A DNA stretch of 64,000 nucleotides from Cyanophora paradoxa CCMP329 (lineage: Eukaryota > Plantae > Glaucophyta): positions 248,001-312,000 of the forward strand of contig QPMI01000117.1 of the NCBI GenBank assembly GCA_004431415.1. The letters run 5' to 3'. The translations under genes were made by a program, and so were the position numbers. Below are positions 15,384-64,000 of this stretch, piece after piece. Numbering within the stretch: position 1 is the first letter of the stretch; the number at the start of each line of letters is the position of its first letter. Below the pieces are notes generated by a model. The model was not told the origin of the DNA. It saw nothing but the letters and a program-made list of their open reading frames with translations, and did no database searches.

Positions 15384-15737
15384 CTGTAAACGTAGAAAAG
15401 TTCGTCACGGCGTCGAGTTTCAATTTCGACAAAACCCGAAAATCATTTTGAATCGTGACGAAAATATGGTTCGACAGCATCATAATTTCGTCAGCCCCGC
15501 GACTCCGCCATAGACGACGTCTATTTCGTCTATATTCGTCAGACCTGCACTTTGACGAATATTTGATACTCTTGAACGGGATTTTTGTATGGAGAAGGGT
15601 ATACTAGCGGCTGACCCGTCTATGGCGAAGTCGCGGGGTTGACGAAAATATGATGCTGGCGAACCATATGCATATTTTCGTCACGATTTTCAGGTTTTGT
15701 CGAAATTAAGTCTCGACGAACTTTCCTACGTTTACAG
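15384..15737. mobile_element. Tc1/mariner-type MITE with long (~130 bp) imperfect TIRs
   Basis: TA|CTGTAAACGTAG...CTACGTTTACAG|TA; arms ~15384-15518 and ~15617-15737. Confidence 0.85.
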
Positions 15738-29300: not shown

Positions 29301-29552
29301 TAGCCTCCAGCTAGCGCTCGAGCTCGGGAGCCTCGGGTGTCTTAGCTACGCGCGGCCGGCCTCGCGGGGAACGAGGCAGCGTGTACAGGACCGAGTAAAG
29401 GGCGGAGATGCGGCTGCGGAGCGCGGGGGCGCGCGGCGGGCCGGCGCACCGCGTCCTCGTCTCTGGGGAAGATCTGGCCCTCCGCGCGCGCCCGAACCGC
29501 CCGCAGCGCCCGCTCGTACGTCAGGCCGGCGCCCGCCATCGCCTCAGAGGCG
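26340..29552 (-). pseudogene. inverted, internally deleted paralog of the ankyrin-TIR gene
   Basis: Reverse complement matches 4197-6810 joined directly to ~11830-12420, introns included; ATG at 29539; junction near 27135 is out of frame as assembled. Confidence 0.88.
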
Positions 29553-46100: not shown

Positions 46101-49100
46101 CGCCTTCCCTCCCTTGCGCGAGCTTGGCCGAAGGTACGCGAAATTTGATCCGAACAAATGAATTTAAGTATCCGCACGCACACGTGCACCAATCCGCTCC
46201 GCGGCAGCTGCGTGTCGGAGTGGACGGCGCCACGCCGCAGGCGGTGATGAAGGAAGAGGAGCGGCAGCGCAACCGTCTCTTCTTCTCGGAAATTGCCGTG
46301 CGCGTCGATCCTCGATCTGCTATGCTTGCATGCTTTGACGCTAGCGCTTGCGCAGCGCCTCGGGGCATTGTTCCTCGTGGTAGTAGGCCTGGGCGCCGCA
46401 CTCATCCATTTCACGCAAGCGACCGCGTGCGCTAATCTTTGTGTATTGTGCTGCCTCGCCTGCTATCTTCTAATCGGCTTGCAATTGCGACTGATATTAA
46501 TATTATTCCGTGCAATTTCCGTAGCGGCGGCTTCTCAGTGAAGGGATGGATAATCTACAGCATCGCTTGTGTTGCCTTTTTGGGTCTTCAGGTTTGTGTC
46601 TCTTAGGCTTAAGCTTCTGGCGCCGGCAAATGCAAAACATCAAGTTCATGCCAATTCGAGTCGATAAATCAAATTCTGAAGCCTTTTTTGCAGGTGATGT
46701 ACTGCACCGAGATATTCTATCGGTGCTGTTGGATTCCGGTTCGCAATTGTTGAGAATGAATTCCTCTAGATCTGATCTTCAATATTAATCATTGTCATTA
46801 TCACGTGCACAGTGGAAAGAGGAGCACATGAAGAAAACGCTCGTGGCTTGGAGCTACGTCGTGGGCTGCAGCGTCGGTTTCCCTGCGGGCTGCATTGCTG
46901 GTTCGTACCGGGCACTTGGTCGTGCGATTTCGGGTCGCATATTCACACCGCACAATTGCAAACAGTGAAGTTCACGGGCAATCTGGACTTTGCTCTTTTA
47001 GCGCCGCTGGCCGGGACCTGGTCAGGCTTCGTCTTCCACAAGGTAAATGCAGTTTTGTCCCAACGTCTCAAAGCTATAGAATATCGGTTCCAAGCTAGGA
47101 ATCGCTGAATCAATTCGCCTCAGATTTTGTTGTACTTCGAGGGGGCGCACGGCTGGTTCGACGGCATCCCGCTCCTCTCCCGCCAGGCCGCCCGCTTCGA
47201 CGACCCGGACCCGAAGGCGCGCCCGCCCCTCCAGAGACATCCCGCGTCGGTCGCAGTCGCTCACGGCGGTCGCGCAGGAGGCGGCGGAGGCGGAGCGGGG
47301 CGCTCGCTGCGTGGCGGTGCGGCTCGTCGGGCAGCCGTGCCCCGCCGCGCCGGAGGAGATCGGCGCCCTCGCCGCGCGCCTCGAGCTCGCGACGGCCAGG
47401 CCGGACTCTGGCGGCGTCCGTGCCGTCTCCAGCGCCGTCCGCGGCGCCGCAGCCACCCTTTGCGGGCTGGCGTCGCGGCGCCTTGGGCGGGGCGGCTTCC
47501 ACTCGGCGCTGCTGAGCGCCGTGCCGGCGGGGCCCGAGCTGCTCGCCGAGGCCCACGACGCCTTCGCCGACGGCGAGGGGCTTCAGGTGCGTACTGCGAC
47601 GTCGACCGATTTCCACGCGCGGGAGGCCTTCGAAATATTCTTGATTCGGGGGTGGCCGTGGCCGCAGGTGTATGTCGTGTCGGATGGCTTCGTTGCCAGC
47701 GAAGGAGCGGGCACAGTGCTTGTACGCGGCCTTGCCACCTCCGGGCGGTACGTTGTTCTCGCACTTCAGCTAACACATAAATAGGCTTTGCATATTTTAG
47801 ACGTCGAATAATATGTATTAACGGTTACTTTGCACGCAGGTACCCCCTGGCGGCGCTGCACGTGCCTGCCAGCTGGTCCCATCGCTCATCGCCGGTGCGT
47901 CCCTGCGAAATCAAACTGGCCATGACTGGCTATGGCAGCCGAGCGGCTAAGAAGCGCCCCTTGCAAATGTAGGCCCGGCTGTTCGTGTCGGAGGCGGCGG
48001 TCGGCGATGGGGAGCGCCCCGCTGCGGCGGCGGTGGCGGAGCTGATGCTGCATGCGCTCGACAAGGCGCGCCGGCGGGCCGACCCGGAGGCCGCCGCGTT
48101 CGGCCCGGCGGACGACGACGCGCCCGGCGGCACGGGCGCCACAGCCGCCGAGCTTCTGCTGAGCGAGCAGGACCCGCCGGCGCCGGACTACGTCCCCGCC
48201 CGCTTCCTGCCGCAGCTGCGGCGCTGCGACGGCGGCGCGCTGGCGGTGCTGGCGGCGCGGGCGCACTCCTCTGCAGCGGTGGTGGCGCTGGCTGGGGTCG
48301 ACGTGGACCGGCGCTGGGCGGAGCTGCCGTGGGGCGCCCGCGCCATCGCCCTCGCGTGCCTCGCGGGAAGCCCCCAGGAGGCTGCCGCTGCCGCTGGGGA
48401 TGCCGCCCTGCGCGCGTCGCTCGCGGAGCTGTACGGCCGCCCCGTCGAGCCCGCCGCCTGGCACGAGGCTTGTGGTGCGCTATTTCGCTCCTTGCGAAAA
48501 TTTAACCGGCTTGCAAAAACAGTGCGCCGCAACGGTTTTCGCAGCGCGCGGACAGATTCTGGCCCGCCTCGCGCACGCGGTCGGGCGCGCGGCGCGGGAG
48601 GAGGCCGCAGCGAGGCCCGCCGAAGCGCTCGCGCTGGAGCTGCCGGAGCCGGAGGCCGCCCCGTTGCCCCTCGTATGTCCAAGATTCGAATTCGAATTCA
48701 TGCGCATGACCTAAATCGTCCTAACGCGGCGGCGCAGGGGAGCGAACGGCTGGCACCAGAGGACTTGTTCGTGCGTCTGCCGCGGGCGCCGGACTCGCTC
48801 GCGGCGCGGGCGCTGGAGCAGCTGCACGTGCGCGGTCCGCGCCACTCTTTTCACTGCGTTCTCAAAATTAGCGCGCGCAGCTTATTGCTCGCCTCTGGTT
48901 CCTTGCCGTGACGGGCGACCCCTCTTTCCCCGCCGAGTCCGTGCTCTCGCTTCGCAAATTCTGCGTCAAAGATGTCATGCCGGCAAAGATGCTAAGGGCG
49001 TTCGACGTCGCAGGTATGGCTACGCCCTGCACGGACCACGCGAGCCGGGACCCGACGCCGCTGTTCGCGCCGGCTGCCTCGCCTGGCCGCTCTACCCGTG

Positions 49101-52100
49101 CGTACTTGCGATCTCAAATTGTTTTTGCATGTGTCAAGTCGTTACTTCACGTTTTTCGCGCTATTTGTAATATTAACTGACGAATCGTCAGGCTGGCGTC
49201 GCACCTGATTCTGCTCGTGCACGCGGCGGCCCGGCCCGTCGCAGGGGCCCTCTTCTGGGGCATGGCCATGGCACTCTCGCCAAAGCTGCGGGCGCTGCAG
49301 CGCGCGATCGAGCGCGGCATCTACCGCCGCGAGCTCCGCCGCGACGGCCTCCTCACCGCCGTCCAGTGCAACCTGTTCGACGTGCGCCTACTGCAGCTGT
49401 ACGTTTAGCTCATCGCACCTTAGCTAATGTACACACAAATTGCAGGGTCCGGTGACGGGCTTCGTGCGGCGGGCGCCCGACGACGCCAGCCGCGTGCTCG
49501 CTGTCCACGTCCTCCTGGGCGTCCTCGACGCGTGCGGGCCTCCCCGCCGCCCGTGCCGCCTTCCGCCGACGCGCCACAGGGAGCCTCGGACGACCTGCGT
49601 GGGCCACGTCGGAGTCGCCTCGGGCAAGGAGGGCGGCAAGGCCGCGCTCTCGCTCTCCGGCTGCGAGTGCACCTTCGTGCGGGCCGAGTACGACGGCGAC
49701 GGGCGCATCCGCCGCCGCCTGCAGTACCGCAGCAACGCCGTACAGTGGACCGCCTTCTACTCGTACGACGGATCCCGCGAGGCAAGCCAAACAACTCTCC
49801 TGCTACGTAAACCGTCCCCAGCTGACCCCTCACAGGAATTCCCCGAGCACGTTCCCAGCACCAAGCGCGTCTACCAGGGCGAGGTACCAGAGCGTCTCGA
49901 TCCTATTTTTGAGGTTTTAATCTCTTGTATTTCATTATGACTTGCATTGCGATCGCCAGATGTTCGACGAGCCGTTGCTGAAGGAGGGAGAGCCGCGACC
50001 TTCGGGGCTCACCCAGGTGCATGGCTAGTTATAATTATAGCGATAGCGCTTGTTCTGTTCGAATTCGCTATTATCGATGCTGAGGTGGCGCGGCCGCATG
50101 CGCAGGAGGTGCGGTACGACGCGACGGGGCGCGAGGCGGCGGCTGTGGTGTACGTGCGGTTGCCGTGGGACAAGGCCTCGTCGCAGCTCGTCTCCGCTTT
50201 CCACAGCTTCCCGATCGACGATCGCGACCAGCTGGTCGACTCGCACGCGGTGGCCGCCGAGTACGCCGGCGTGCCGCTCGGCCCGCACCGCACGGGCGCC
50301 CTCTCCATCGAGCTGTACCCCCACACCCTCCTTCCGAAAGAGGCGAGGCCCCTCCCGCATTCCAAGTCCATCATCCCCCGATACTGAAAGAGGTCGAGGG
50401 CCTTCCGAATTCTCTCTAACGTCGACGTCGGGGGCAGGTGACGATACGGGAGGAAGGGATGCCGACTTTGCGCATGACCTATGCATGGTGTCATCCACAG
50501 CACCCAATTGTCACAACCGTAAATAAGCCGTTTCAATATATCGTTTGCTTCAATTTGCCAACCGTGCTCTCTTAGGTAAATGTACAAACAAATGAGCCAT
50601 GCGAAGCGCCTGAGCTGGTGAGCATTATATTCGTATACGTGCTGGCGTACATTTTAAATTTGGGAACGCAATTTAAAAAGCTGGTTCCAGGTCGAAAAAG
50701 ACACGCTTGGGCTTCTCTCCCGCCTTCGCCACGTGGCCTCCATCTATCAGGTCCGGATCCACCAGTATAGAATTTCCGAAGAGAGTCGGCGAGCCTCATG
50801 ATCACGACGGCTCGCTGCAGGACGACCTCCTAGCGCCGCTTCCGAGGGCAGAAGAGAATCCCGAGAAGCCGACTCTGCCGTCGCCCTGGAGCTGGCGGTC
50901 GAGTTCGAAGCGCCGCTCGCGGAGCGTCGCGTCTGCAGCGATGCCGACGGCGATGGCGCGAACTGCTCTATGGCGCGCCTGGGCCGCGGTGCGATGATCA
51001 TGAACCGCTCCAACGCGAGGACCACCGCAGTCACTTAGGAGAACTGCAGGGCGCGGTGGACGGAACGCAGGTTCGGCTGTGGGACGAGGCACTGCTGCGC
51101 GAGGAGCCCGCGCTGCGGCGTTACTGGCGGCTGCGGGACTGGGGCCTGCTGGAATCGGCCCGCGGGGAGCTGCGGGAGCGCGAGTCGGACATTGTCGCTG
51201 CGATCAGTTTCAACAACGAGGCACGCCCAAAGCCATGTCCGCACGCAGCTCGTGGCGGCAGTGTGACACTTCGCAGGGTGTGCGGACGCTTACGGCCTTC
51301 CGTACGTCGGACCTGTTCGACATGTGCCGTGGCGGCTCGTCGCAGCGGTTTGCCCCACCGCTCAGGCTCGCAGTCGAAGTTACGCACTTATGAAATAAAC
51401 TGCAGATACTCGATCGCCGAGGCCGAGGCGCCTGCAAGGGCGGGGCCGAAAGGGGAGGGGGCCGATCCCGACGACCCGGCAATTTTTGCGCGCTGGAACG
51501 AGGCTGCCCCGCTGCCCGTCACAAACGTCGACACGGGCACGTGGCCCATGGACGGCGGCGTGCGTCCCTGCATGCTCCAAATAATCTCTACCTCTGAAAA
51601 TAAGTATCGCAAAGGGCGTGGCGGCGTGCCGGCGCGACCTGGTCGACACGCTCCCTCATCTCCGATGGGACGCCTCAATCGAGCTGGGCAACGAGGCCCG
51701 CGGTTCGTGATTACCGCTCGAGCTTCGGTTTTCGAATTCGCAGAACCTCACTCTTAGTATCTCAGTGCTGCCTCCGGGCTACAACGTGACGCGGAACGTC
51801 CGCTCGCTTCACTTTACACCGCTCTGGCACATTTCGGGGGTGCGCTCTGGCTCATCGCCCATCAGCCGGCGGATTCGCTTTCTAATCGCATATGCACGTG
51901 CTCGCAGCTGCCGCAGGTGCAGCAGGCCGATCAGGAGATGGCCGCTGTGCCTTACGGTCTGCTGGCGGCGCGGCGCTGGCGGACTTGTCCAAGCATCATT
52001 CGGCGCTTCTTCGTTCCGGTCCTGCGTCGAGTGCGTTGTCTTTGGATTCGCTCCGCATTCAGAACCATGTTTAGCTGCAGGCCTTTTACTTGCAGATGAT

Positions 52101-52140
52101 ATTATAAAAGCTGGTTTCTGCCCTCGCGGGCGGGTCACTT
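40114..52140 (+). CDS. very large multi-exon membrane protein resembling fungal Gtb3-class GT4 polysaccharide synthases; 3' part absent or interrupted
   Basis: N-terminal FDGVLLAGV...LSGVLLTDLCVNSDGSPR...EVVRRFANL; multiple TM exons at 44.2-47.1 and 49.2 kb; ARTALWRAW, WDEALLREEPALRRYWRLRDWG, DTGTWPMDGGGVAACRRDLV (51530-), YNVTRNVRSLHFTPLW, RRFFVPVL resemble recalled motifs of that family. Confidence 0.65.
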
Positions 52141-52590
52141 TGCGTGTACCCCCCCGCCCCTCTTTCCCCCCGCTAGGGCCCCATTGGCGGCGATGGCCCG
52201 TACCCCCCCTCTCGCGAATGGACCCCGCGGAGACCCGATGGGAGGGCGGGGGACGGGGGGTAGGGCTGCAGCGAGGCCGGCGTACCCCCCCTTGATCCCA
52301 CGTACCCCCTTTCGCCCGCGCGGATGGGTACGGGCGGCGGTCGACTCCGAAAGGGCAGCGAGGGGGCACGCGCGTCACGGATTCACGGAGGTCACGGGGG
52401 GCGCGGCGGCCTGGGGGGGGGTACGGCCGCTGTCTGGAGCGGGGCCGGGCTGATTGGGGGGTACCCCCTGCCGCCGCCGAGGTGCGAGGAGGATTGGGCT
52501 CGGATCCGAAAAAAACGCGTTGGGATCCTAACATCGGATTCCGAGGATACTAGGAGGCTCGGGCCGAGGGTCCTGGGAGGATGGACGGCG

Positions 52591-52603
52591 GCATAAATAG
52601 GGG
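52591..52603 (+). promoter_or_regulatory. TATA-like box of a repeated promoter module
   Basis: GCATAAATAGGGG 35 nt before ATG 52638; identical at 60479-60491; both preceded by AACATCGGAT(T/C)C and CGGATCCG. Confidence 0.65.
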
Positions 52604-52637
52604 TTCGTGGGCCCATTCCCGGCACTCTTCCACCGAG

Positions 52638-53705
52638 ATGAAGCGCGGCGCCGACCCGAAGCGGCACCCGGCGCGCCTGGCGATCGACCTCAGCGACGAC
52701 GAATCGCCACCCAAGCGACGCAGCACGAGCCACCTGCCGGGCGTACCGCTGCATTTGGTGGCGCGGAAGGAGCCGCAGCCGGAGCCCGAGACGCTCGCGG
52801 AGATCAAGCAGGCGCTGAAGGACGTACGCGAGCTCGGCGGGCTCGTGCTCGACTCCGCCGAGCCGCACGCGATCCGATTGGCCGGCGTGTCCCGGCCGGT
52901 CGCGGCGGTGCGGATCGGGCCCGAGGCGACGGCGGAGGCCCGGCGCATCTACCGCCAGCACTTCCGGGGCCCGGCGGTCCGCATGCTGGACGCCGACGAC
53001 ATAGCGGACGTGCTCGCCTTCCGCATGCCCGACTGGGCCCGGCAGCCGACGAGCGGGGCGTACCGTAGCGCGAAGGAGACCGTGCACCTGGCCCTCCGGC
53101 TGCGTGACGGCACGTGCCAGTACTGGAACTGCTGGGACGCCTGCAACGGACACGACGACGCCCTGTACCGCGCCTGCTGGAAGTTCGTGATGCGGCGAGC
53201 GGTCCGCGACGAGACGAACGAGTTCTACGACTCCTGCAAGCGCGAATCGGGCGGCAGGCGGCTCACGTGCTCGACCTGCGGCGCCATCGAGGGCGACACG
53301 CCGCACCACGTGGACCACGCGCAGCCCGACTCGTTTGCGCGGACGCTGCTGGACTTCTGCCGCCTGCGGGGGCTCGAGCGACCGGACGGGCGCATCGAGG
53401 CCAAGATCTCGGCGCGGAGGGCCTCGGAGGGCGAGGAGGGGAACTACCACCTGCTGCTGCCCGTCGTGCTCGAGACGGTCCCGCCTACCCTTTCGAGCGA
53501 CTTTGCGGACTACCACCGCTCCCAGCCAAAGCAGCTGCGGGTCCTCTGCCGGGCCTGCAACGTCAAGGCCAGCAGCACCGCATCCCGAAAGGTCGGGCGC
53601 TACACCATTGGCGGGCGGCTGGTGTGCGAGCGGAACGGCCCATTCGACCGCGACAGGCCAGCGTCATCTGTCCGCGTCACCCTGAACGCCCGTAGATCGC
53701 CGTGA
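52638..53705 (+). CDS. DCL (DUF3223)-like plus HNH endonuclease
   Basis: Intronless; LALRLRDGTCQYW (DCL-like), MRRAV, CSTC...HVDH..P.SF, FADYH...LRVLCRACN (zinc-bound HNH fold). Confidence 0.75.
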   Translation: MKRGADPKRHPARLAIDLSDDESPPKRRSTSHLPGVPLHLVARKEPQPEPETLAEIKQALKDVRELGGLVLDSAEPHAIRLAGVSRPVAAVRIGPEATAEARRIYRQHFRGPAVRMLDADDIADVLAFRMPDWARQPTSGAYRSAKETVHLALRLRDGTCQYWNCWDACNGHDDALYRACWKFVMRRAVRDETNEFYDSCKRESGGRRLTCSTCGAIEGDTPHHVDHAQPDSFARTLLDFCRLRGLERPDGRIEAKISARRASEGEEGNYHLLLPVVLETVPPTLSSDFADYHRSQPKQLRVLCRACNVKASSTASRKVGRYTIGGRLVCERNGPFDRDRPASSVRVTLNARRSP

Positions 53706-53954
53706 CCCGCGGCATCATGCGTGAATGTGCGCGACGAATGTGAATTTGTACACAATCCCTGCCTACCCCCTGCTGCCGCCGACATGCGAGCGGGATTAGG
53801 TCGGGCGGGGGAGCCCGTTTGGCGGCCAGGAGTTGCGTTTCACGGGGCGGGGTGACTGTATTCGGACTCAACGCCCGTCACTTATGGGCGGACCGTCACG
53901 GTGCGCAGTGACGTTTCGCACCCCCTGACCGTCCATCCCGTGCGCCACCTACCG

Positions 53955-54105
53955 AACGGGTGACGCTCGCATGCTGACGGCCGGCTGAATGGGTGACGCG
54001 GACGACCGGGCGGGTGACGCGCGCGGGATTGGGGTGACGCCGCCGACTCCGGCAGTGGGTGACGGGTGACGCCGACATTGGAGGTGAGGGAATGACGCGT
54101 GACGG
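53955..54105. repeat. cluster of GGGTGACG direct repeats
   Basis: At least 6 GGGTGACG plus further TGACG copies in ~150 bp. Confidence 0.75.
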
Positions 54106-54805
54106 TGAGGGCGGAGGGGGGTGAGACGCAGGGGGGGTACGTGATTCATCAATATTCATATTAGGGCTAGACATGAAGGTCGACCGAGGACGACGAGACT
54201 GCCAAAGAGCCCGTGAGCGACACCGTGCCATCCGAGAGGAGGGCCGTCGCCGCGCCGGTCCCGAAGGGCAGGAGCGTCGTGAGCGTGCCCCGCCTTGCCA
54301 TCCAGCCCGAGGACGCCAGGGTCCAGCTCGAGTAGACCGCGCCGGCCTCCTCGACCTCCAAACCGCACGAGACCCCCGTGCCCGTCGCGCCCCCGACGTT
54401 CAGGCGGATCTGCTGCTCCTGAGCTGCGCGTCCACCACCAGGTTGCCGCAGGTGACGCGCAGGCCCTTGTCGCGCAGGGCCGGGCGTCGGCATCTCCAAC
54501 CTGTGCTGCTGCCTCATGACGCGCAACCCGGGGTTCCGCGACTCGCGCTCCTCCGAGTTCCCCATCCTGCGATGGAACGTCCTCAACCTCGGGACCAGCC
54601 CGAGACGCTCGCGGAGATCAAGCAGGCGCTGAAGGACGTACGCGAGCTCGGCGGGCTCGTGCTCGACTCCGCCGAGCCGCACGCGATCCGATTGGCCGGC
54701 GTGTCCCGAGGTTGCGCACCGCCGGCCCGCCCGCCCTGCACGACTCGCGCATGCTGCCCTCACCGTCACGCGTCATTCCCTCACCTCCAATGTCGGCGTC
54801 ACCCC

Positions 54806-54879
54806 CTGCGCGACCAGATGATCACCGCATCGGACGTGGCGGCCGTCCTCGGCCTCAACCCCTACTGCTCGCCGAACCA
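54806..54879 (+). pseudogene. fragment of a YqaJ/lambda-exonuclease-like viral recombinase
   Basis: LRDQMITASDVAAVLGLNPYCSP matches the N-terminal R..ITASD.A..LG.NPY.S motif; no downstream nuclease motifs. Confidence 0.7.
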
Positions 54880-55001
54880 GGGGTACGTGATTCATCAATA
54901 TTCATATTAGGGCTAGACATGCTCGGGGTCCTCGGCGCTCTCGGAGCCGCTAGAGTCGTCGTCGTCGTTCCGGGGCGGCGGCGTCCAGGGCTCCAGCCCC
55001 G

Positions 55002-55873
55002 GAGCGCATCTCCCTCAAGGTCCTCGACCAGCACGGTGCCGTCGACATCTACCGCATCAAGAGCACCAGCCGCCTCGAGAAGCTCTTCGTTACGCACGGG
55101 AGGCGCATCGGCGTGCCGGCCGACCGCATCCGCTTCATGTTCGACGGGGCGCGCATCCAGCCGCACCAGACGCCCGATGGGGTGGGGCTCCAGGACGGCG
55201 ACGAGATCGAGTGCGTCTCTCTTTTGTTCCTTTGCGCGCCGCCGCTGACTCTCGCGGGCCCGCAGCGTCATGATGGAGCAGGTCGGCGGCGGGCGGGTCC
55301 GCGTCATCGTGCACGACAACCTCTTCACCTTCAAGGGCTTCGGCCAGACCACCGAGGTCCCCACCGTCTGGGCCTACCGCATCGACTCCAACCTCTCGCT
55401 CGTGCACCTCATCGCGCACCACTCCGACCGCATGCTGCACCAGCCCGGCACCGTTTACCTCGCGCTCAAGGGGGAGCGCATCGACCCGCTCGACACCGCC
55501 GAGTCCCTCGGGTTCTACGACAACATCGAGCTCGAGTGCGCTCTTTCGTAGCCCTGCGCCGGCCCTTTGTCTGACGCCGCCGCACAGGGCCCGCTACGAC
55601 CCGGAGGCCATCCACGTCACCGTCAACTTCAACGGCCACTGCATCCCGTACCGCCTCCTTCCCCACATGCAGATCGGCCGCATCTTCGACTCGTACCGCA
55701 AGCCCCTCGGGATGTGGCCCGACTCGATGCGCATCCTCTTCAACGGCATGCGAGTCCAGCCGTGGCAGATGCCCGCGGAGGTCGGGCTGTCCAGTGGCGA
55801 CGAGATCGATATTTTGAGCGGCCAGGAGGGCGGAGGTGTTCCAGAAGACCCAGCGGGCGAAACTCGTCAGTGA
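55002..55873 (+). CDS. tandem triple SUMO-like (Rad60-SLD/SUMO fold) protein, 2 introns; start unresolved
   Basis: ERISLKVLDQHG...YRIKSTSRLEKLF...IRFMFDGARIQPHQTPDGVGLQDGDEID|VMMEQVGG; unit 2 ...LKGERIDPLDTAESLGFYDNIELE; unit 3 ...MRILFNGMRVQPWQMPAEVGLSSGDEIDILSGQEGG; introns 55211-55265 and 55536-55587. Confidence 0.88.
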
Positions 55874-56057
55874 GCCGCGGTCCGCCAGCTGCAACCCCCC
55901 CGGGTGCGCGTCGAACCGGTTGCGAACGTCCTCGTAGGCACCGGCCGGCTCCCATATTTACCAAAAGTTTCGCGATCGAGCGCCCAGCAGCTCACGTAAT
56001 AATTAATTTTAACCCACCGCCTGGGTCGCCGACGTCCAGCGCCGCGCCAGGTCGGCC

Positions 56058-57744
56058 ATGCGCGAGTACGACTCGACCAGCCCTCGCTGGACGTCGCCGC
56101 CGCCCTCAACGTCGTGGGCCACATGGGCGAGGCGACCTTCCAGGCCGTCGTCGAGACCTCGCGCCCGCTCAAGGCCGTCGTCGGGCGCGAGAACTTCGCC
56201 TACTTCAACCCCATCGACATCATGGACGGCTTCCTCGCCTCGGACCACACCAGCGCCACCGCCATCCGTTCGCGCGTCCACTCCGAGGTCGGCGCCTTCC
56301 TCGCCGACTCCCAGTCCCTCCGCTACGTCCACTTCCGCACCGCCCTGCCCCTCAACCTGCTCCTGGCGCACATGGCGATGCGCGACGCCACCATCGTCGT
56401 GCGCTACCCCCCTTGCCCCTTCTACCGCTGCCCCCCTGACCCCTGCTACCCCTGCAGATCGCCGCCGTTCACGCGGGGTGCGACGGCGGCGCGTCGGGCC
56501 CCGTCGACATCGACTCGACCCGCGCGCTGGCCTCGGCGGTCTACGGCTACACTGTCGAGATCATGGACACCTTCTACACCGCCTTCAAGCGCGCGATGGG
56601 CTCCCAGTCCGACGAGTCCGACCTCGAGGCCGAGCTCAAGTCCATCGCCGACCCCGGCGACAGGATCAAGTGCACCGGCAAGACCCGCACGCTCCTCAAC
56701 AACCTCGAGAACAAGTGCGACGCCAACGAGCCGCACCGCCACGTCGACTTCCCCCCCGGCGGCTCGTGCATCTCCCAGATCGACCTCCGGCCCAAGACCG
56801 TCGCCCCCTGCAACGAGCGCCTCAGTCTCTCCTCGACCATCCGCCCCGAGTTCATCCTGGCCCAGCGCAAGTTCACGCGGGGCCTCCGCTGCATCTACGA
56901 GTCGATGATCCAGCCCGGCGTCGTTGAGGACGAGTCCGTCAGCCCCCCCGTCGTCATCGATCTCTCCCCCAACGCGGCCAACATGGGGGGCGCCTTCCCC
57001 GTGCTCTTCAACCTCGTCGCCTTCGCCCTCCGCAACCACGACCGCGGCGAGGGCGTCCGCTACGGGTTCCGCCACGTCGCCTCCATGAACCTCGAGACCC
57101 GCGGCACCTTCACCGTCTCCTTCACCCCGCACGTCATCGGCCAGTGCGACGTCATCTTCGTGCACGCGCTGACCTGGGTCGACTGGCGCAACGGCGAGGT
57201 CCCCAACAAGAAGCGCCCGTTCTGGAGCGAGGTGATCGGCCACGGTCTCGGCGCGGTCCTTCACGTCGCCAACCAGCCGACCCCCTTCCCCGTCGTGTGG
57301 ACCCGCGACCAGACCGAGAAGCTCTCCGGCTGCCACATCGACCCGCTCTTCAACTCGATGCGCTTCGGTGGCAACGCGGAGCTCCTCGAGCTCTACCCCA
57401 TCATCGAGATCCCGCCGCAGGCCTTCTGGCTCGGCGCGGGCCCCCTCCCCCTGGGGGCGACCGTCACGATGGTGATCATCGGGGGTCCGCCGCAGATGCG
57501 AGCGCCAGGGGCCAGGGGCGAGGTCGTCGATGAGCGATTCGTCCCCGGAGTAGAGGCGCAAAAAGTTCGTGTGTCCAAAGGTCCGCTTGAAGTACTTGGC
57601 GCCGCGGCCGGGCGCGGACGTCCTGCGCAGGCGAACGCGCGCGCAAGTGTCAGGCGAACGCTCGCGTGTCAAATTAACCAAGAGCGCACCCGCTCGGGCG
57701 CCGCCAACATCCAGGTCATGCCGACCGTCCTCGGCTTCAAGTAG
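56058..57744 (+). CDS. uncharacterised ~540-aa protein, one intron, apparent frameshift near start
   Basis: Strong GC3 codon bias; intron 56399-56457 joins ORF 56114 in frame to ORF 56563-57744. Confidence 0.65.
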
Positions 57745-58169
57745 TTTTCGTGTTCCCGCGAGAGCGCGTTAGGGCCCGCAATCCCCCGCGATCACCGCCC
57801 AGCAACTCGTCGTCCTCCTCGACGCCCACCCCGCCACCTGGGCCGCGCGGACCGCCATGTCGCCGGGGTCCCGCTCGGCCCGATCGTACAGCCAGCGCTC
57901 CATGTGACGCCCAGAGCGCCACCGCAGGGTCGGGGGCGGTTGTGTGCCGCTAGTGCGCATCCCCGCAACCTCGGGCGGCCTGCATTTTTGGCGGTCGTAC
58001 TTAATGAATTTCTTCGCGATCGAACGACTCGGTCCCAGGGTCCCACTTTTTGACTTGGGCTGGGGCGTGATGCCCGACGTCCAGTACCGAATGGCGTCCT
58101 GCGCTTGGGGGCGGGGGTCGAGGCGTTCTGCATTTCCGGGATCGCCGCGGGCAGACTGGGAATGGGCGG

Positions 58170-58609
58170 TGGGTGCAGAACGGCGACATCCTCGAGTGCG
58201 TTTCTCCTTTCGCGTCTACCCCGCGCCCCCCTGACTTTTCGCGTACAGCTACGAGCCGGCCCAGACCGGCGGCGGCCGCTCCGAGCCCACCGAGTTCGAC
58301 GACGAGCCCGCGCCCGAGCCGGAGTGGCGCGAGGTCGGCGACGGCCTCGTGCAGACCGTCGTGCCCGTCTCCATGCCCCGCTACGTCCTCGAGGGATTCG
58401 CGCGGCTCCCGCTGGAGGGGCGCTGGGACATGCAGAGGCTGATGGACGACGAGTTCCACAGGAGCGCGCAGAGGGCCGCGGCGTTGTGCGGGCCCAACAC
58501 GCCCCTCTCGACGCTGCGGATCCTCATAGCCCAGCAGGCGCAGGACGACTTTTACGCCACGATTCTTCCCGCCCTAGATACGTTCCTGATCGAGCGCGGG
58601 CTGTTCTAG
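58170..58609 (+). CDS. SUMO C-terminal segment (QTGG) fused to an orphan helical domain; 5' part missing or unresolved
   Basis: VQNGDILD|YEPAQTGGG after removing intron 58196-58248, continuing in frame to ...DTFLIERGLF*. Confidence 0.65.
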
Positions 58610-58637
58610 TTTTTTTGAGCAGAGTTGTGTGTCTTCA

Positions 58638-59777
58638 ATGGATTCCCAACAGACCCCGAACCCAGGAAGAGAGATACTACAGGGGATAGACAGGAGCTTT
58701 GAAATGTACTTCAATGCGCGGCGATCAAACCAAGACATGAGTGAGAGCGTGAATCTGCTCATGGAAACACTAGAGCGGGCGTTCCCGGCAAGGGGGCCGG
58801 ATCGGATACTGGAAAACGCCCTCGTAACGACCCACAAGGTCTTGCGACTCCAGGACAATCCCCAGATTCTCCAAAATGCTCTGGAGCCAGCAATTGAGAG
58901 AGACGACCGTGCCAAGTTCTTCCTGAGTCTTGTACTAGATAGGTACAGAAAGATAGACCTGTACTTTTCGCAGGAGGGCGCGTCCTCCGACGAAACCGAC
59001 GAGCCCAGCGAGCCCAGTGAGCCCGACGAGCCCGACGGGCCCCGCGAGCCCGGGTTGATAGGGCGTGTACTCGGAAGTTTCATCGCGCAGACCCCGCAGG
59101 CACTCCGGGACCGGATGCAGAGAGTGGGCGCCACAACCCCAGCGGTCATCGATGCGGCCGCCCCACCCCTCGCCCCCCCGCAGGCCTTTGGTACCCCCCC
59201 GCAGACCTCATCCTCTCCCGCGGGGTGGACAGAGAGAGCAAGACGGGCCGCCGGGGGGCTTTTTGGCAGGCGCAGGGGGGCCGCAGCCTCCGCGGTATCC
59301 CCCGCAGGCCCCGCAGGCCCCGCAGCCGCCTCAGCCACCGCAAACCCCGCAGCCCCCGCAGCCTCTTCCACAGCCGCCGCAGCCGCCGGGGGGCTCATCG
59401 CGGGCCCTGCAGCTGCGACGAGGGGCGAGTTCCAGATGCAGACGGATCCGGAACCGGGGCCGGAGAGGCGGTCGATTGCCGTGGGGGGCGATGAGCCCAT
59501 CTTCCGTCTACCCCGCAACCGCATCCGATTCCAGCCTTCTTTTGCCCCGTACCCCTACTACCCCCCGCCCCTCGAGTCGCCGCGCAGGCCCCTCCCGCCC
59601 CCGATCCCGCTCCTTCCGGGGCTGCAGCAGATCCCTCACGATTACGCAAGGCTCACAGGACAGGGAGGCTGGTCTAACGGCTACGGAGGCTACCAGGGCT
59701 ACGGAGGCTACGGGGGCTACGGCGCGCGACAGGGGCCGACTTCTGCTTTCGGATCGTGGCCAGGCGCTTGGCGGTGA
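58638..59777 (+). CDS. orphan intronless protein, helical N-terminus, Ala/Pro/Gly-Tyr low-complexity C-terminus
   Basis: Long ORF with different codon usage in its N-terminal part; GGYQGYGGYGGYG tail. Confidence 0.65.
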   Translation: MDSQQTPNPGREILQGIDRSFEMYFNARRSNQDMSESVNLLMETLERAFPARGPDRILENALVTTHKVLRLQDNPQILQNALEPAIERDDRAKFFLSLVLDRYRKIDLYFSQEGASSDETDEPSEPSEPDEPDGPREPGLIGRVLGSFIAQTPQALRDRMQRVGATTPAVIDAAAPPLAPPQAFGTPPQTSSSPAGWTERARRAAGGLFGRRRGAAASAVSPAGPAGPAAASATANPAAPAASSTAAAAAGGLIAGPAAATRGEFQMQTDPEPGPERRSIAVGGDEPIFRLPRNRIRFQPSFAPYPYYPPPLESPRRPLPPPIPLLPGLQQIPHDYARLTGQGGWSNGYGGYQGYGGYGGYGARQGPTSAFGSWPGAWR

Positions 59778-60142
59778 TCGGGGCGTACTTGGCCGCGTGG
59801 GCCCTGCGGGACTCCTCGGCCTTGCGCGCCTCCTCGGCCTCGCGCTTGATCCGAAGGGCCTCCTGCTTGGCCCGGTAGGCCTCGCGCTCCTCCGGAGTCT
59901 GAGGAATCGTGCGCCACCTTGTGGGCCAGAAGGGCCGGCCCGTGCTGCTCCGGTGGCTGAAGGGCTCGGCGGGCACGGCGGGCTCTGCGGGCTGGCGCAG
60001 AATCAGCATAGGCGTGCGCGAACCAAAAGGGGGCGCGGCGGACCTTGGGCGCGGGCTCGGCGGAGAAGATGCGGGCACAGAGGGCCTCGGTCTCCTCGAG
60101 GTTGCCGCAGTCGAAGAAGGTGTTGTCGTCGGCGGTCGACAT
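59674..60142 (-). CDS. small basic/coiled-coil orphan protein, one intron
   Basis: Intron 59992-60043 (GT..CTGAT..CAG) joins MSTADDNTFF...PAPK in frame to PAEPAV...TPEEREAYRAKQEALRIKREAEE. Confidence 0.6.
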
Positions 60143-60244
60143 GGCGGGGCGGCGGAGGGTTGGTGTTGGAAGAGAGATTCGGTATGCCTCAGAAAGTGTG
60201 AGGCCGACTGGCGGCGACTCGGGTTTTGTGGGGGCCCGGGGGTG

Positions 60245-60491
60245 CTAGGAGCCACGGCCCGAGGAGCCTAGGAGCCACGGCCCGAGGAGCCTAGGAGCCG
60301 GAAAAAAAGAAGTCCTAGTAGCCTGAAATTTCAGGCAAGGTGTACCCCCCCAAGTCTCCTAAGACCCGGGCTCCTAGGCGGATCCGGATCCGAACATCGG
60401 ATCCTACGAGGCAGGGATCCGAGCTTGCAAGTACCATCCGACGTTCGGATCCGGGGTCGGATCCGACTTTGGCCCGGTGCATAAATAGGGG
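60245..60491. promoter_or_regulatory. divergent promoter region with a 23-bp tandem repeat and GGATCC palindromes
   Basis: CTAGGAGCCACGGCCCGAGGAGC x2+, multiple (C)GGATCC(G), and GCATAAATAGGGG, between ATGs 60142(-) and 60545(+). Confidence 0.6.
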
Positions 60492-60544
60492 GCCGCGCGC
60501 CACCGGGGCTCACTCTCGTCCCGCTAGAACAGCCGCAACCCGAC

Positions 60545-61249
60545 ATGGCCCGCAGCGATTCCAAGGTCCCCGAGGTTCCGGACGTCTCCAAGGGCGCCGA
60601 GGTTGCCGAGGTCGCCAAGGGCCCGGACGGTCTCTGCTGCGGGTGCAAGGACCCCAAGGCGCCCCAGGGGAAGCGCGACTGGCCGAAGAGCAGCGTGCCG
60701 TACCTCGCGTCCTGCAAGATCCCGAGGTCGCCCGGATACGTGCGCCGTCCGGGGCCGATCTCGCGCGCCGGGGCCGACCGGGTCGCGCAGGAGGTCGTCC
60801 TCTTCCACGGCAAGAGTTACAAGGAGGTCACCCAGGTCATGGTGTTCGGGCGGTGCTGGGACGAGGAGCGCATGGACTGGTACGAGCACCCGCTGATCGG
60901 CCAGTGCGGCCACGTGGTGCGATCGGTGGACTGCCCCGTGTCCGGCAAGGACTACCTGGTCTGCATCTTCCCGAGCCTGGACTACGTGGTGCGGCCCTCT
61001 TCGGGCCCGAGTACGCCTTTCCTAACCCCGGGCCCGCAGTGGGTCCACGGCGAGTGCGTCGTCGGGTTCACCCACCGCTTTGCCACCCGCAGCACCCCGG
61101 CGTTCCCCAGGCAGATCGCCGCAGCCCCCGCCGTGCCCGTAGATCCCGTAGCCCCCGCCGGCCCCGTAGAACCCGTCGGCCGCAAGAGGGCGCGGGCGGG
61201 CGACGATGCCCCACAGGAGCGCCGCGTCACCCGTGTCACGCGCAAGTAG
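60545..61249 (+). CDS. orphan 234-aa protein with basic NLS-like tail
   Basis: Intronless ORF downstream of the TATA module; ends GRKRAR...RRVTRVTRK. Confidence 0.7.
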   Translation: MARSDSKVPEVPDVSKGAEVAEVAKGPDGLCCGCKDPKAPQGKRDWPKSSVPYLASCKIPRSPGYVRRPGPISRAGADRVAQEVVLFHGKSYKEVTQVMVFGRCWDEERMDWYEHPLIGQCGHVVRSVDCPVSGKDYLVCIFPSLDYVVRPSSGPSTPFLTPGPQWVHGECVVGFTHRFATRSTPAFPRQIAAAPAVPVDPVAPAGPVEPVGRKRARAGDDAPQERRVTRVTRK

Positions 61250-61301
61250 GTGGTGTGTGCGCGAAATTTCGAGGGGTACGGTAGATCGCAAGGGATCCAC
61301 G

Positions 61302-61880
61302 ATGCATTGGATGCACGGGGGGTTCCCCATTCGGGGCGACAGGGGGAACAGCAACCGCCTCTTCCCCGTCACCGATGATCCGGAGGTCAACAGGGCCGCG
61401 GGGCTGGCGACGGAGATCGAGGGGTACGCGGTGCAGCTCCGACGGCAACTGGCGATGCTGCAGAGGGTAAACGAGGTTCACCTTTACGAACAGCACCTGT
61501 CCGAGGAGATGCGGCTGCCCCCCGAGGAGCGGTTCGGGGATTATCAGGGGGACCCCGGGCTGTTCGATGTCATTTTCAGGCCGAAGGGGGAGGTCTACCC
61601 GTCGAACCCGTGGGAGCACAGGATGATCGAACTGCGGGGGGATCCGGCGGCCCAGGAAAGGCACGTGCAAGACTTCCGGAGGTGGGTACGGGGAGAAAGT
61701 GACAGAACCATGGGGCTGTACTTCCCGCTCGTAATGCAACTAGGGGAGCCGCACGCGTCCCAGCTGGACAGGACGATGCCCCCGCAGGCCTGGGATGATG
61801 GCGGTCGCGGCAGGTTCGGCGTCGGGGTCCGCAGCTACATCGATCGGCAGCGGATGCAGGAGATGATGCGGCACACGTGA
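61302..61880 (+). CDS. orphan protein (~190 aa)
   Basis: Intronless ORF with normal composition from MHWMHGGFPIRG. Confidence 0.65.
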   Translation: MHWMHGGFPIRGDRGNSNRLFPVTDDPEVNRAAGLATEIEGYAVQLRRQLAMLQRVNEVHLYEQHLSEEMRLPPEERFGDYQGDPGLFDVIFRPKGEVYPSNPWEHRMIELRGDPAAQERHVQDFRRWVRGESDRTMGLYFPLVMQLGEPHASQLDRTMPPQAWDDGGRGRFGVGVRSYIDRQRMQEMMRHT

Positions 61881-61891
61881 GGTCTACGGGG

Positions 61892-62137
61892 CTACGGGAA
61901 GAGCCACTTATCCACCGTCGTGCGCACCCCGAAGAGCCGGTGTGCCGCGATCCCGGCCGCAAAGACCGAGAGGAGCGCCGTCCAGATGCAGATCCCGTAG
62001 TAATCCGCGAGGACGCGAGCGGTCGCGATGCTTAACAGGATATCGACGATCGCGAGGCCGCAGACGTGGAAGTGGACGCCGGTGCCGGGGCGGCCGAGGG
62101 AGTCGGAGAGGTGGGAGAGGGAGGCTTGCATTTGCAT
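61892..62137 (-). CDS. small two-TM orphan protein
   Basis: Hydrophobic segments LAIVDILLSIATA and IWTALLSVFAAGIAA. Confidence 0.55.
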   Translation of the reverse strand: MQMQASLSHLSDSLGRPGTGVHFHVCGLAIVDILLSIATARVLADYYGICIWTALLSVFAAGIAAHRLFGVRTTVDKWLFP

Positions 62138-62155
62138 GTGATAAAGGAAGACAAT

Positions 62156-62614
62156 TTAGACGTTGTACTTCTCCTGGTACGCCTTTTTGCGGATCCAGAG
62201 AGCATTGGGATGTGTTGGGTCATAATTGATGCTATCCGTGTCTGGGATGTACCGGCCCTTTTTCTTGTTTGCCTCATCGCCATCCCAGTTGCTGATTGTC
62301 ATACTCTCGGGATCCTCGCCATCCACGGTTATGATGAGAGGCTGATCCTTATTCCATCCTGGGTAATCGGGGATGGTGAGGCGGTATACATCCTCCCCAT
62401 CCTTGGTTGTTCGGGAGTAGCGGATGACATGCGGGCGCGCCATTCCCTTGACACCACCGGGAAGGGTAGCCTCGTGTGTCGGGTTGTACCACTTGCCCTC
62501 GAGGGGGTGCGCGGTCTTTCCGGTGTCGGAGCTGCTTCCCATGAGCAAGAAGGCAGCACCGACACCGACAACAAGGAGGAGGATAACGAGGATGAGGACA
62601 GCAGAGCCGGCCAT
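62156..62614 (-). CDS. N-terminally membrane-anchored orphan protein
   Basis: MAGSAVLILVILLLVVGVGAAFLLM TM, then LEGKWY beta-type domain. Confidence 0.7.
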   Translation of the reverse strand: MAGSAVLILVILLLVVGVGAAFLLMGSSSDTGKTAHPLEGKWYNPTHEATLPGGVKGMARPHVIRYSRTTKDGEDVYRLTIPDYPGWNKDQPLIITVDGEDPESMTISNWDGDEANKKKGRYIPDTDSINYDPTHPNALWIRKKAYQEKYNV

Positions 62615-62648
62615 GGGTGATACAGAGGATGCAAGAAAAATCTAGGAC

Positions 62649-63644
62649 CTAAGACCTACCGATGGCAGTGTTCAGGGCATCAAATGCCAGCCGTAAATCG
62701 TTTGCCTGTGCATCAGTTACGGCAGTTCCCATCACATAGCCGCCATTGCGATTATCCGACGGTCCGTGTATTTCTTCAGCTTCACCTGCAGTTCCTGTAG
62801 CGCTTCCATGGGAGGTGCTTACTGTAACACTCCAATCCGAAGGAGTGGAATTTTGTGTACCAGTTACAAGAGTGCATTCCGACTTATTGCCATTTGCATA
62901 GTAATAAACAGGTGTACCCAGAGCTCCCTGCGTCATAAGCATCAATCCGACAACCGGCACTGTTTGATTTGTGTTCATCTGTCCACCCCATCCGCAGCGG
63001 TTTGCCGTATTGTCGGTGAGAATGTAGTGGCGCGACCACTCCAACCCCCTGAATACGCCCATGAGTCGGGTTGCGGTTGGGGGCAAAGAGAGGGCAAATA
63101 CCCCAAAGTGGAGGTTCGATCCATTGGTAGTTATCGAAGAAAGTTTGACCCCTGTGTCAATAAACCCACCCGCAGTTACAGAGACCCGAGTCCCCGTGAT
63201 TCCTTGCAGTCTTCCATAGGTACAAGCTGTCGCACCAGTCCCCAAAGCTCTATTCGTGTCTGCAGTTGCTCCCAAAACCGTATTGATCGGACAGAGAGCA
63301 GTATTGATATCGGCACCACAGAAGGTATTCAACCGCCTGAGTGCACCCCATGTTCCGTTTGCAGAGTTAATGAGCGCGTTCACAAAAGCAATATGCGCAT
63401 CCTCCTCTGTGGCGTTCACTCCCGCCCCTCCGTTCGCCGCTATGGCCGCTTTCCAATCTGCAACTCTCTTGTTCGCAAATGATTGTGTTCCTTTCAAGGT
63501 CGACAGCCTAACGACCCCAGTGGTTGGGGCAGGGTACGTTGAGAACCCCAGCAGTTTCGAAAAGCGGAACTTGCCAGTCAACCCCATCATTTTCTGCAGG
63601 GATGACATGGTGATCTTTGTTGTCCCCACGGTCTGGACAGGCAT
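62649..63644 (-). CDS. virion fibre/tail-like protein
   Basis: N-terminal ITMSSLQKMMG...PTTGVVRLSTLKG motif of the kind seen in viral fibre proteins; DWKAAIAANGG...AFVNAL..G.W..L..L..FCG; Thr/Gly/Asn-rich beta-sandwich-like body. Confidence 0.55.
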   Translation of the reverse strand: MPVQTVGTTKITMSSLQKMMGLTGKFRFSKLLGFSTYPAPTTGVVRLSTLKGTQSFANKRVADWKAAIAANGGAGVNATEEDAHIAFVNALINSANGTWGALRRLNTFCGADINTALCPINTVLGATADTNRALGTGATACTYGRLQGITGTRVSVTAGGFIDTGVKLSSITTNGSNLHFGVFALSLPPTATRLMGVFRGLEWSRHYILTDNTANRCGWGGQMNTNQTVPVVGLMLMTQGALGTPVYYYANGNKSECTLVTGTQNSTPSDWSVTVSTSHGSATGTAGEAEEIHGPSDNRNGGYVMGTAVTDAQANDLRLAFDALNTAIGRS

Positions 63645-63702
63645 GAGGTCATGAATCAGACAATCAAATTATTTTTACGGCAGACTGGACCATCGTACCG
63701 AG

Positions 63703-64000
63703 TCACCTCACAAAAACCATCACCGGGTTGCTGTTCTTGAAGGTTGGATGGAGTGCTCCTTGTGTGTTGAATCCATTTTCACCCCAAAAAATCCAGGTTG
63801 GATCGTGAACGCTCCCGGGTGATATCCATGGATCTTCAGCGTTTAAATTGCGGTGGTAAATATAGGCATTTGTGTTTCTGTCGGCGGTCCCCATGTTCTG
63901 AGATGACCCAGTCATTGTAACTACTTTTCCAGATTCAATCGGGAACGTAATCTGGGACAACGGGAAATAAAACCAGTACCCGGTTGTTGTCCAAAAAAGG
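63703..64000 (-). CDS. 3' end of a further orphan ORF, truncated by the window
   Basis: Open frame ending ...HPTFKNSNPVMVFVR*. Confidence 0.55.
   Translation of the reverse strand, partial: LFWTTTGYWFYFPLSQITFPIESGKVVTMTGSSQNMGTADRNTNAYIYHRNLNAEDPWISPGSVHDPTWIFWGENGFNTQGALHPTFKNSNPVMVFVR

Follow-up and report, generated by a model that had tools for sequence, protein, structure and literature searches.

How three SUMO-like units came to stand head to tail in a mobile insertion, and whether they still work there, is the question raised by a locus of the glaucophyte alga Cyanophora paradoxa CCMP329. The window, that is, the whole stretch of DNA analysed, comprises 64,000 nucleotides (GenBank assembly GCA_004431415.1, contig QPMI01000117.1, positions 248,001 to 312,000 of the forward strand), and coordinates are counted from its first letter. 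A preliminary description, made from the letters alone, had seen in it a virus-like element with a captured and amplified SUMO gene, which could form a SUMO-hijacking system. The reading favoured here, to which we give about an even chance, is that a SUMO gene of the host lineage was multiplied at the DNA level in a mobile, probably Polinton-like element, as a mimic of SUMO chains, and that the present copy is rearranged and probably defective.

The claim of three SUMO-like units in one reading frame was borne out. Once the two introns of the array (Table 1) are spliced out, the frame is open from 54954 to the stop at 55873, and the 762 nt of array coding sequence are free of stops and frameshifts. 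Pfam Rad60-SLD matched exon by exon with E values of 6.7e-11, 2.7e-3 and 1.6e-4, and it matched three stretches of the public gene model of the locus, P0001 (E 3e-24); units 2 and 3 taken singly scored 17.9 and 21.9 bits, below the Pfam cut-off of 23.8. AlphaFold2, run with a 30-row alignment, predicted three beta-grasp domains with a mean local confidence (pLDDT) of 81.5 and without a fixed mutual arrangement (pTM, the global score, 0.43). In blocks of 10 residues, pLDDT was 91–98 in unit 1, 81–92 in unit 2 and 87–95 in unit 3. Both the profile and the structure check proposed in the preliminary description therefore returned three domains. All three are of the beta-grasp PF11976 type and nearer to SUMO than to ubiquitin, and the best solved relatives of unit 1 are SUMOs, not ubiquitin; Foldseek with the model of the whole array gave linear ubiquitin chains as its top PDB matches.

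The tails of the units are also as had been described: unit 1 ends in QVGG (at 55290), unit 3 in QEGG (at 55834) and unit 2 in neither. A diglycine (di-Gly) follows the last strand at the canonical distance in units 1 and 3 and in a fourth SUMO tail at 58.2 kb, but not in unit 2. In SUMO, the FDG motif contacts Ubc9 and the groove residues bind SUMO-interacting motifs (SIMs). Both FDG and the basic groove residues are kept in unit 1; the FDG position reads LKG in unit 2 and FNG in unit 3, and unit 3 has lost the groove lysines. The units hold one to three lysines each, as against six in canonical SUMO, and units 2 and 3 are ~30% identical to SUMO. Unit 1, being near-canonical in sequence, could be conjugated or bind SIM-bearing proteins.

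A host-derived gene, amplified as DNA, had been proposed, and the comparisons agree with it: the two best relatives of unit 1 are host SUMOs, and one intron site is common to three units. When P0001 was searched among shorter proteins, the top two of 10 matches were the tandem SUMO genes of C. paradoxa (P0167 and P0168). Unit 1 shares 57.8% and 55.8% identity with these and at most 51% with 46 other SUMO domains, in a candidate set that is biased by shared words; with P0167 it shares 15 of 16 residues around FDG and a 7-residue tail. At strand 2 all three units have Y-R where six canonical SUMOs have F-K/R, and their DNA is alike (z 10.6 for units 1 and 2, 13.1 for units 1 and 3), indicating that the units were multiplied from one ancestor. 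In a quick tree (51 rows, 94 columns) they fell on one side of a branch. Unit 1 kept 25 of 33 invariant columns, compared with 19 of 45 variable ones. Under a substitution-only null carried to 57% identity, the frame stayed stop-free in 26 of 500 runs and third-position GC (GC3) reached at most 0.91, compared with the observed 0.93. The units diverged under coding constraint, and the gene was likely taken from the host lineage.

The preliminary description had given all units the same intron. The results showed that three of the four units, the fourth being a tail remnant, have an intron at the same D/E codon, in phase 2 and with the signals GTGCG..CTGAC..CAG, whereas unit 3 has none at that codon. 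The shared site implies that the units were multiplied at the DNA level. Moreover, with a phase-2 intron directly ahead of it, the tail can move together with its cargo as one exon, which likely explains how the unit 1 tail was joined to the unit 2 body and a QTGG tail to an orphan domain; the lack of di-Gly in unit 2 may thus be a by-product of shuffling, not a selected block to cleavage. Among 60 metagenome SUMO loci, none had the array's intron (30 were contiguous to GG, 20 were other, in 10 the motif was not found, and some were cDNA), and the exact pattern of a SUMO gene with this intron was found 0 times in metagenomes. RNA runs X21, X22 and X24, of the same species label, did not cover the SUMO exons; their host exons differ from those of the window, and they may come from another strain and are uninformative either way. 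At 55234, X21 showed a loose end resembling SUMO, which was dropped, as it was gone on recheck and did not match P0167 or P0168.

At 55811–55873, the end of the array, third-position GC falls from 64/68 in the unit 3 body to 6/9 and 4/11 immediately past the site of the missing intron. Either the intron was lost exactly or the 3′ end was replaced.

What stood of the virus-like element is an insertion whose end is repeated; the window yielded no viral hallmark gene. Three contigs of short-read set X1 start at 52116 with unlike flanks, and at 52117 one contig each of X1 and X3 departs from the window, its letters (read by hand) continuing the host exon in frame; this continuation is absent from the window. 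These contig ends indicate that a host gene is interrupted by an element whose end is repeated, with the SUMO block downstream of the break. In the junction bin of X1, summed contig depth, which is not a copy number, was 793, compared with 22–132 in the other 29 bins. Discrete insertion into host DNA, with an end that recurs elsewhere, is expected of a Polinton-like virus (PLV), and 366 PLV capsid genes are listed for C. paradoxa (PMC10120064, supplement), which makes PLV the likeliest element class. We consider it probable that the element is a PLV.

All 75 stop-to-stop frames of at least 90 residues in 52–64 kb were scanned with Pfam, and 15–16 chosen open reading frames (ORFs) with PHROGs, Pfam at E 10 and NCBIfam; besides SUMO, only weak YqaJ and HNH matches were obtained. 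A PLV would be expected to have a major capsid protein and a packaging ATPase, pPolB or a primase-helicase, an integrase or tyrosine recombinase, and terminal inverted repeats over a length of 15–30 kb; within the window the left end has no terminal repeat partner. Phage tblastn gave no relative, nor did scans of viral contigs with unit 1, host SUMO, the SUMO alignment and the ORF at 62.6 kb; a word-based search with unit 1 alone gave no candidate, and Rfam gave 0 matches in 52–64 kb. An identical 12-nt AT-rich motif, preceded by GGATCC-rich repeats, lies at 52592 and 60480 upstream of two intronless ORFs and is a candidate promoter of the element.

In the favoured reading, host polymerase and spliceosome would have expressed the array, and host Ulp/SENP proteases would have cut after QVGG and QEGG to give a unit 1 monomer and a fused dimer of units 2 and 3. 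Unit 1 would be conjugated or would soak up SUMO-binding host factors, and units 2 and 3, with their changed surfaces, would serve as scaffold or decoy. The shared phase-2 intron would have been the shuffling point at which 'GG tail + cargo' exons were joined, and the two genes that flank the array would bind to SUMO through their IDLS motifs. One of these genes is an intronless HNH-like ORF, in which an acidic run and a basic patch follow the motif; the other is the orphan gene g1138. The pattern [VI]DL[ST] occurred in 2 of 12 element proteins, namely those encoded by these two genes, compared with 0.16 expected (P 0.009). The VVIDL of g1138 would be a 'type b' SIM. It fits the hhXh core of SIMs with an acidic flank (PMC8616421). 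A complex prediction of the array with the IDLS segment of g1138 scored 0.00 and gave no verdict.

The array might instead be a SUMO paralogue of the host that was later swept up with three other host genes as passive, decaying cargo, or that came to lie between two nested insertions; we regard this as possible, though on the unlikely side. In 52–64 kb, all five strong intron motifs (5/5) lie within the 55.2–58.3 kb block, as fits a host-derived segment, and the genes of the insertion outside the block are intronless. The block has a GC3 of 0.93–0.98 with C-rich third positions, its array is single-copy, each of its genes is broken at a junction, and head-to-tail SUMO ORFs occur in cellular genomes, e.g. 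fungal ones. On the other hand, g1138 found only itself among 1856 candidates, indicating that it has no close host paralogue. GC3 is equally high (0.90–0.92) in two intronless element ORFs, falling to 0.49 at 62.6–63.6 kb, and IDLS is also present in the intronless HNH-like ORF. Furthermore, latent viral genes, such as those of punuiviruses, are known to gain spliceosomal introns (bioRxiv 10.64898/2026.10.09.758095).

The confinement of the introns to the block and the cellular head-to-tail ORFs also weigh against the favoured reading, as do the following observations. Unit 1 was not joined to host SUMOs in the quick tree, which is poorly resolved and, because of its long branches, uninformative. 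Of the invariant columns, unit 2 kept only 10 of 30 and unit 3 only 13 of 33. Searches of 52–64 kb, using libraries without PLV-specific profiles, gave no capsid, ATPase, polymerase, primase or integrase in an element that outruns the window, and a paralogue of the host gene could be the source of the left-junction contig. The IDLS pattern was one of four and was chosen post hoc, and the psi-KxE, SIM+acid and nuclear localization signal patterns were not enriched in the 12 element proteins. The SUMO exons lie on one X1 contig at 80% likeness with no second close copy, and the array protein clusters alone (cluster of 1). As far as seen, the array is thus not conserved cargo of an element family.

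The 5′ end of the array has been replaced. Upstream of unit 1 there is a TAG at 54951 with no in-frame ATG downstream of it, and the region is now a patchwork of recent fragment copies. It contains a 42-nt exact repeat (54134–54175/54880–54921), a 112-nt exact copy of the HNH-like ORF (at 54597–54708) and a 49-nt exact inverted copy, as well as a minus-strand acidic remnant; fragments like YqaJ, HNH and the tail lie among these exact copies. The pattern suggests that templates were switched within the element very recently. P0001 (280 aa, EukProt label Cyanophora paradoxa) includes both array introns and takes its first 22 codons from the YqaJ fragment via a 106-nt GT-AG intron; to judge by the frames, the array can now be started only with that fragment spliced on. 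Gene models of C. paradoxa come from Augustus trained on RNA-seq (PMC6704402), and P0001 is therefore a prediction and not proof of a transcript.

The fourth SUMO C-terminus, described as fused to an orphan domain, stood as a QTGG tail and its junction, but without a SUMO body, fold or start. The SUMO part is a tail of ~22 residues. Among the 24,444 GT-AG junctions of the window, its junction had the best SUMO-tail score that does not use the donor of unit 1 (27.4, compared with 12.1 for the best SUMO-unrelated junction), which makes the junction more than chance. A SUMO profile run over the six frames of the window found three domains and none at 57.7–58.2 kb; DNA likeness upstream of the fourth donor was weak (z 2.2, equalled in 12 of 300 shuffles); and the frame has no in-frame ATG and is closed by a TGA at 58068. 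A hidden SUMO body was ruled out on these grounds. Ulp/SENP proteases require a folded SUMO domain, and the proposed protease-released effector is unsupported, given that the gene has a SUMO tail only.

These results bear on whether the present copy works, in the sense that a spliced tri-SUMO yields monomer and dimer while the second gene frees an effector after QTGG. We regard this as quite improbable. The array is intact in frame, P0001 gives it a start through a GT-AG intron, and the orphan exon has a GC3 of 0.94. However, the fourth gene lacks the body that proteases would need; both splice models that would rescue it use a non-consensus donor and still give no fold; and the first intron of the array has no branch site and spans the rearrangement. 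Each of the four genes with introns in the block has been truncated or frameshifted, and with no second copy in X1 at 80% likeness a working SUMO-hijacking system, as first described, is doubtful here. X1 and X3 short-read contigs match 54892–60274 with 0 differences and 0 gaps, which excluded long-read error as the cause of the gene breaks; X1 and X3 may be the window's own source and are not independent populations. Domestication of the array by the host, which would use it as a decoy for the SUMO-binding proteins that invading elements or giant viruses bring in, is very improbable: within the block the array has suffered the least damage and its locus is fixed in 20 DNA runs (all possibly of one strain), but it has no promoter or start of its own, its chimeric 5′ end with exact repeats looks recent, and protein searches found no array orthologue.

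A wider form of the favoured reading is that a PLV lineage has its own intron-bearing, exon-shuffled SUMO module (cleavable monomer, fused dimer and SUMO-cargo fusion) together with SIM-bearing viral proteins, and that intact versions exist in diverged sister elements; a DNA virus of middling size would then encode a ready-formed SUMO chain and not just SUMO proteases, ligases or SIMs. This is speculative and, in our estimate, unlikely.

Table 1. Features of the insertion and its SUMO block, in window coordinates
Feature	Position	Strand	Remark
Mobile insertion	52116..64000	.	Left end 52116–52117; right end beyond window; probably Polinton-like virus
Intronless HNH-like ORF	52638..53705	+	Pfam HNH E 0.16 only; IDLS at 52683–52694 (N-terminus), acidic run, basic patch
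Patchwork of recent fragment copies in place of SUMO gene 5′ end	54064..54990	.	
YqaJ/lambda-exonuclease N-terminal fragment; first exon of P0001	54818..54882	+	Pfam YqaJ E 0.021; TIGR03033 E 0.0075
Putative first intron of P0001	54883..54988	+	Good donor; no CTRAY branch site; spans rearrangement
SUMO unit 1 body	54990..55210	+	56–58% identity to host SUMOs
Intron 1	55211..55265	+	Phase 2, D codon; also in P0001
Unit 1 tail (QVGG) and unit 2 body	55266..55535	+	
Intron 2	55536..55587	+	Codon and phase as intron 1
Unit 2 end without di-Gly, intronless unit 3 (QEGG), 12-residue tail, stop	55588..55873	+	
Orphan gene g1138 (public model P0166)	56058..57486	+	Intron 56399–56457; VVIDLS at 56950–56967
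Frameshifted gene remnant	57490..57903	-	Intron 57623–57689
Fourth-unit end remnant	58152..58195	+	Before donor, 29/44 nt as in unit 1; neither fold nor in-frame start
Fourth-gene intron	58196..58248	+	Codon and phase as introns 1 and 2
QTGG tail (ends 58273) and 112-residue orphan domain	58249..58609	+	Coding-type third positions, GC3 0.94
Intronless orphan ORFs, small membrane-protein-like ORFs, low-GC3 ORFs at 62–64 kb	58638..64000	.	Low-GC3 ORFs fibre-like by eye only

In g1138 the first ATG is out of frame, and at its 3′ end the gene passes into antisense sequence of its neighbour downstream. It gave no PDB match, and its single-sequence fold was useless (pLDDT 31). Its coding signal stops at a strand-like TMVIIGG (57466–57486), which is reminiscent of a ubiquitin-like end; the Pfam scan at E 10 found no ubiquitin-like domain there. 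The HNH-like ORF, compared with viral contigs, gave one chance match of 26 residues in a phage protein.

The rest of the window is host DNA in several places. An intron-rich ankyrin-repeat host gene is present as an inverted duplicate (4197–6810 and 27134–29552, 88–97% alike, ~20 kb apart); these arms were considered as element ends and rejected, being that gene. The exon cut by the insertion belongs to a large intron-rich host membrane-protein gene with paralogues (43000–52117), and spliced contigs related to it occur in RNA runs of the same species label. A Nup98 GLEBS match (31817–32344, E 3.1e-7) marks a host nucleoporin gene. On the minus strand, 15495–15623 has a weak likeness to the SUMO C-terminus (tblastn E 0.07) that the SUMO profile missed and that is probably chance.

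Canonical SUMO, represented in C. paradoxa by P0167 and P0168, is a beta-grasp domain of PF11976 with FDG and the xxxxQxGG tail seen in unit 1; it is a single unit, whereas the array has three fused units, one of them without di-Gly, and fewer lysines. A three-unit profile matched 1687 proteins at E 0.001, of which the best 150 were considered. Counted with a simple motif, 67 of 165 other proteins from the searches have an internal [QE]xGG with at least 60 residues after it; among 30 proteins looked up, the named multi-unit ones were fungal or plant and none was viral. Poly-SUMO ORFs such as those of Rhizophlyctis rosea (P0004), Cadophora (P0161) and Diplocarpon rosae (P0018), and others of Helotiales, have several units per frame, some with QxGG, as in the array. 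They differ in being cellular as far as named, in having units closer to canonical SUMO and in being predicted gene models, and in the poorly resolved quick tree their origin was independent of the array. Since head-to-tail SUMO ORFs are common in fungal databases, the architecture itself is not new. Such ORFs seem widespread in fungi, though SUMO is described as encoded singly, and they are not described in the passages concerned of fungal (PMC7691676) and plant (PMC11371177) SUMO reviews.

The RENi proteins (Rad60, Esc2 and NIP45) have two SUMO-like domains without conserved di-Gly behind a long N-terminal region. Like the cereal di-SUMO-like (DSUL) proteins and SUMO-v, they have fused and partly non-cleavable SUMO-like domains, which offer a model for the dimer of units 2 and 3. 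DSUL proteins have two units, no conserved di-Gly and are encoded by host genes (PMC11371177). The array departs from both DSUL and RENi in its three units, two with QxGG, and from RENi in its lack of a long N-terminus. In Chlamydomonas, tail repeats of SUMO1 and fusions of SUMO to a 2OG-Fe(II) oxygenase show algal SUMO tails repeated or fused; these are host genes, and the fusions have a full SUMO domain and no di-Gly, the reverse of the fourth gene here (PMC7522501).

In pestiviruses, ubiquitin-like insertions have a role in processing. The nearest precedent for tail and cargo is in the cytopathic pestiviruses, in which ubiquitin-like insertions, including SMT3B (a SUMO), precede a viral protein (PMC13517609; BFVD); unlike the array, these were captured from mRNA by an RNA virus and have no introns. 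A PF11976-type domain occurs in Burro retrotransposons, selfish elements (PMC6431247), and two 'Rad60/SUMO-like' proteins of pithovirus metagenome-assembled genomes are found in BFVD (ranks 46 and 49); by annotation these are single domains, with neither an array nor introns reported in the sources drawn on. Giant viruses have Ulp1-like proteases, and SUMO as cargo goes unmentioned in the passage on them (PMC11915834). A SUMO array carried by a PLV was not found in searches of literature and supplements that covered supplementary domain tables in part.

The insertion resembles PLVs of C. paradoxa in its multi-copy end in host DNA, orphan intronless ORFs, HNH-like gene and low-GC3 ORFs, and differs from them in having no hallmark genes in the window and a block with five spliceosomal introns. 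PLVs are described as intronless (PMC10120064), and introners have been reported in them (PMC12166617). That there is one copy, and a broken one, and that the viral identity is unproven limits the significance of the locus; it nevertheless places spliceosomal introns and intron-mediated shuffling in an element class described as intronless. If the favoured reading is true, it would hint at SUMO-dependent silencing that restrains integrated viruses in algae. Viruses are known to hit SUMO signalling via proteases, ligases and SUMO-binding motifs, and SUMO itself, deployed as a fused chain, would then be a different route.

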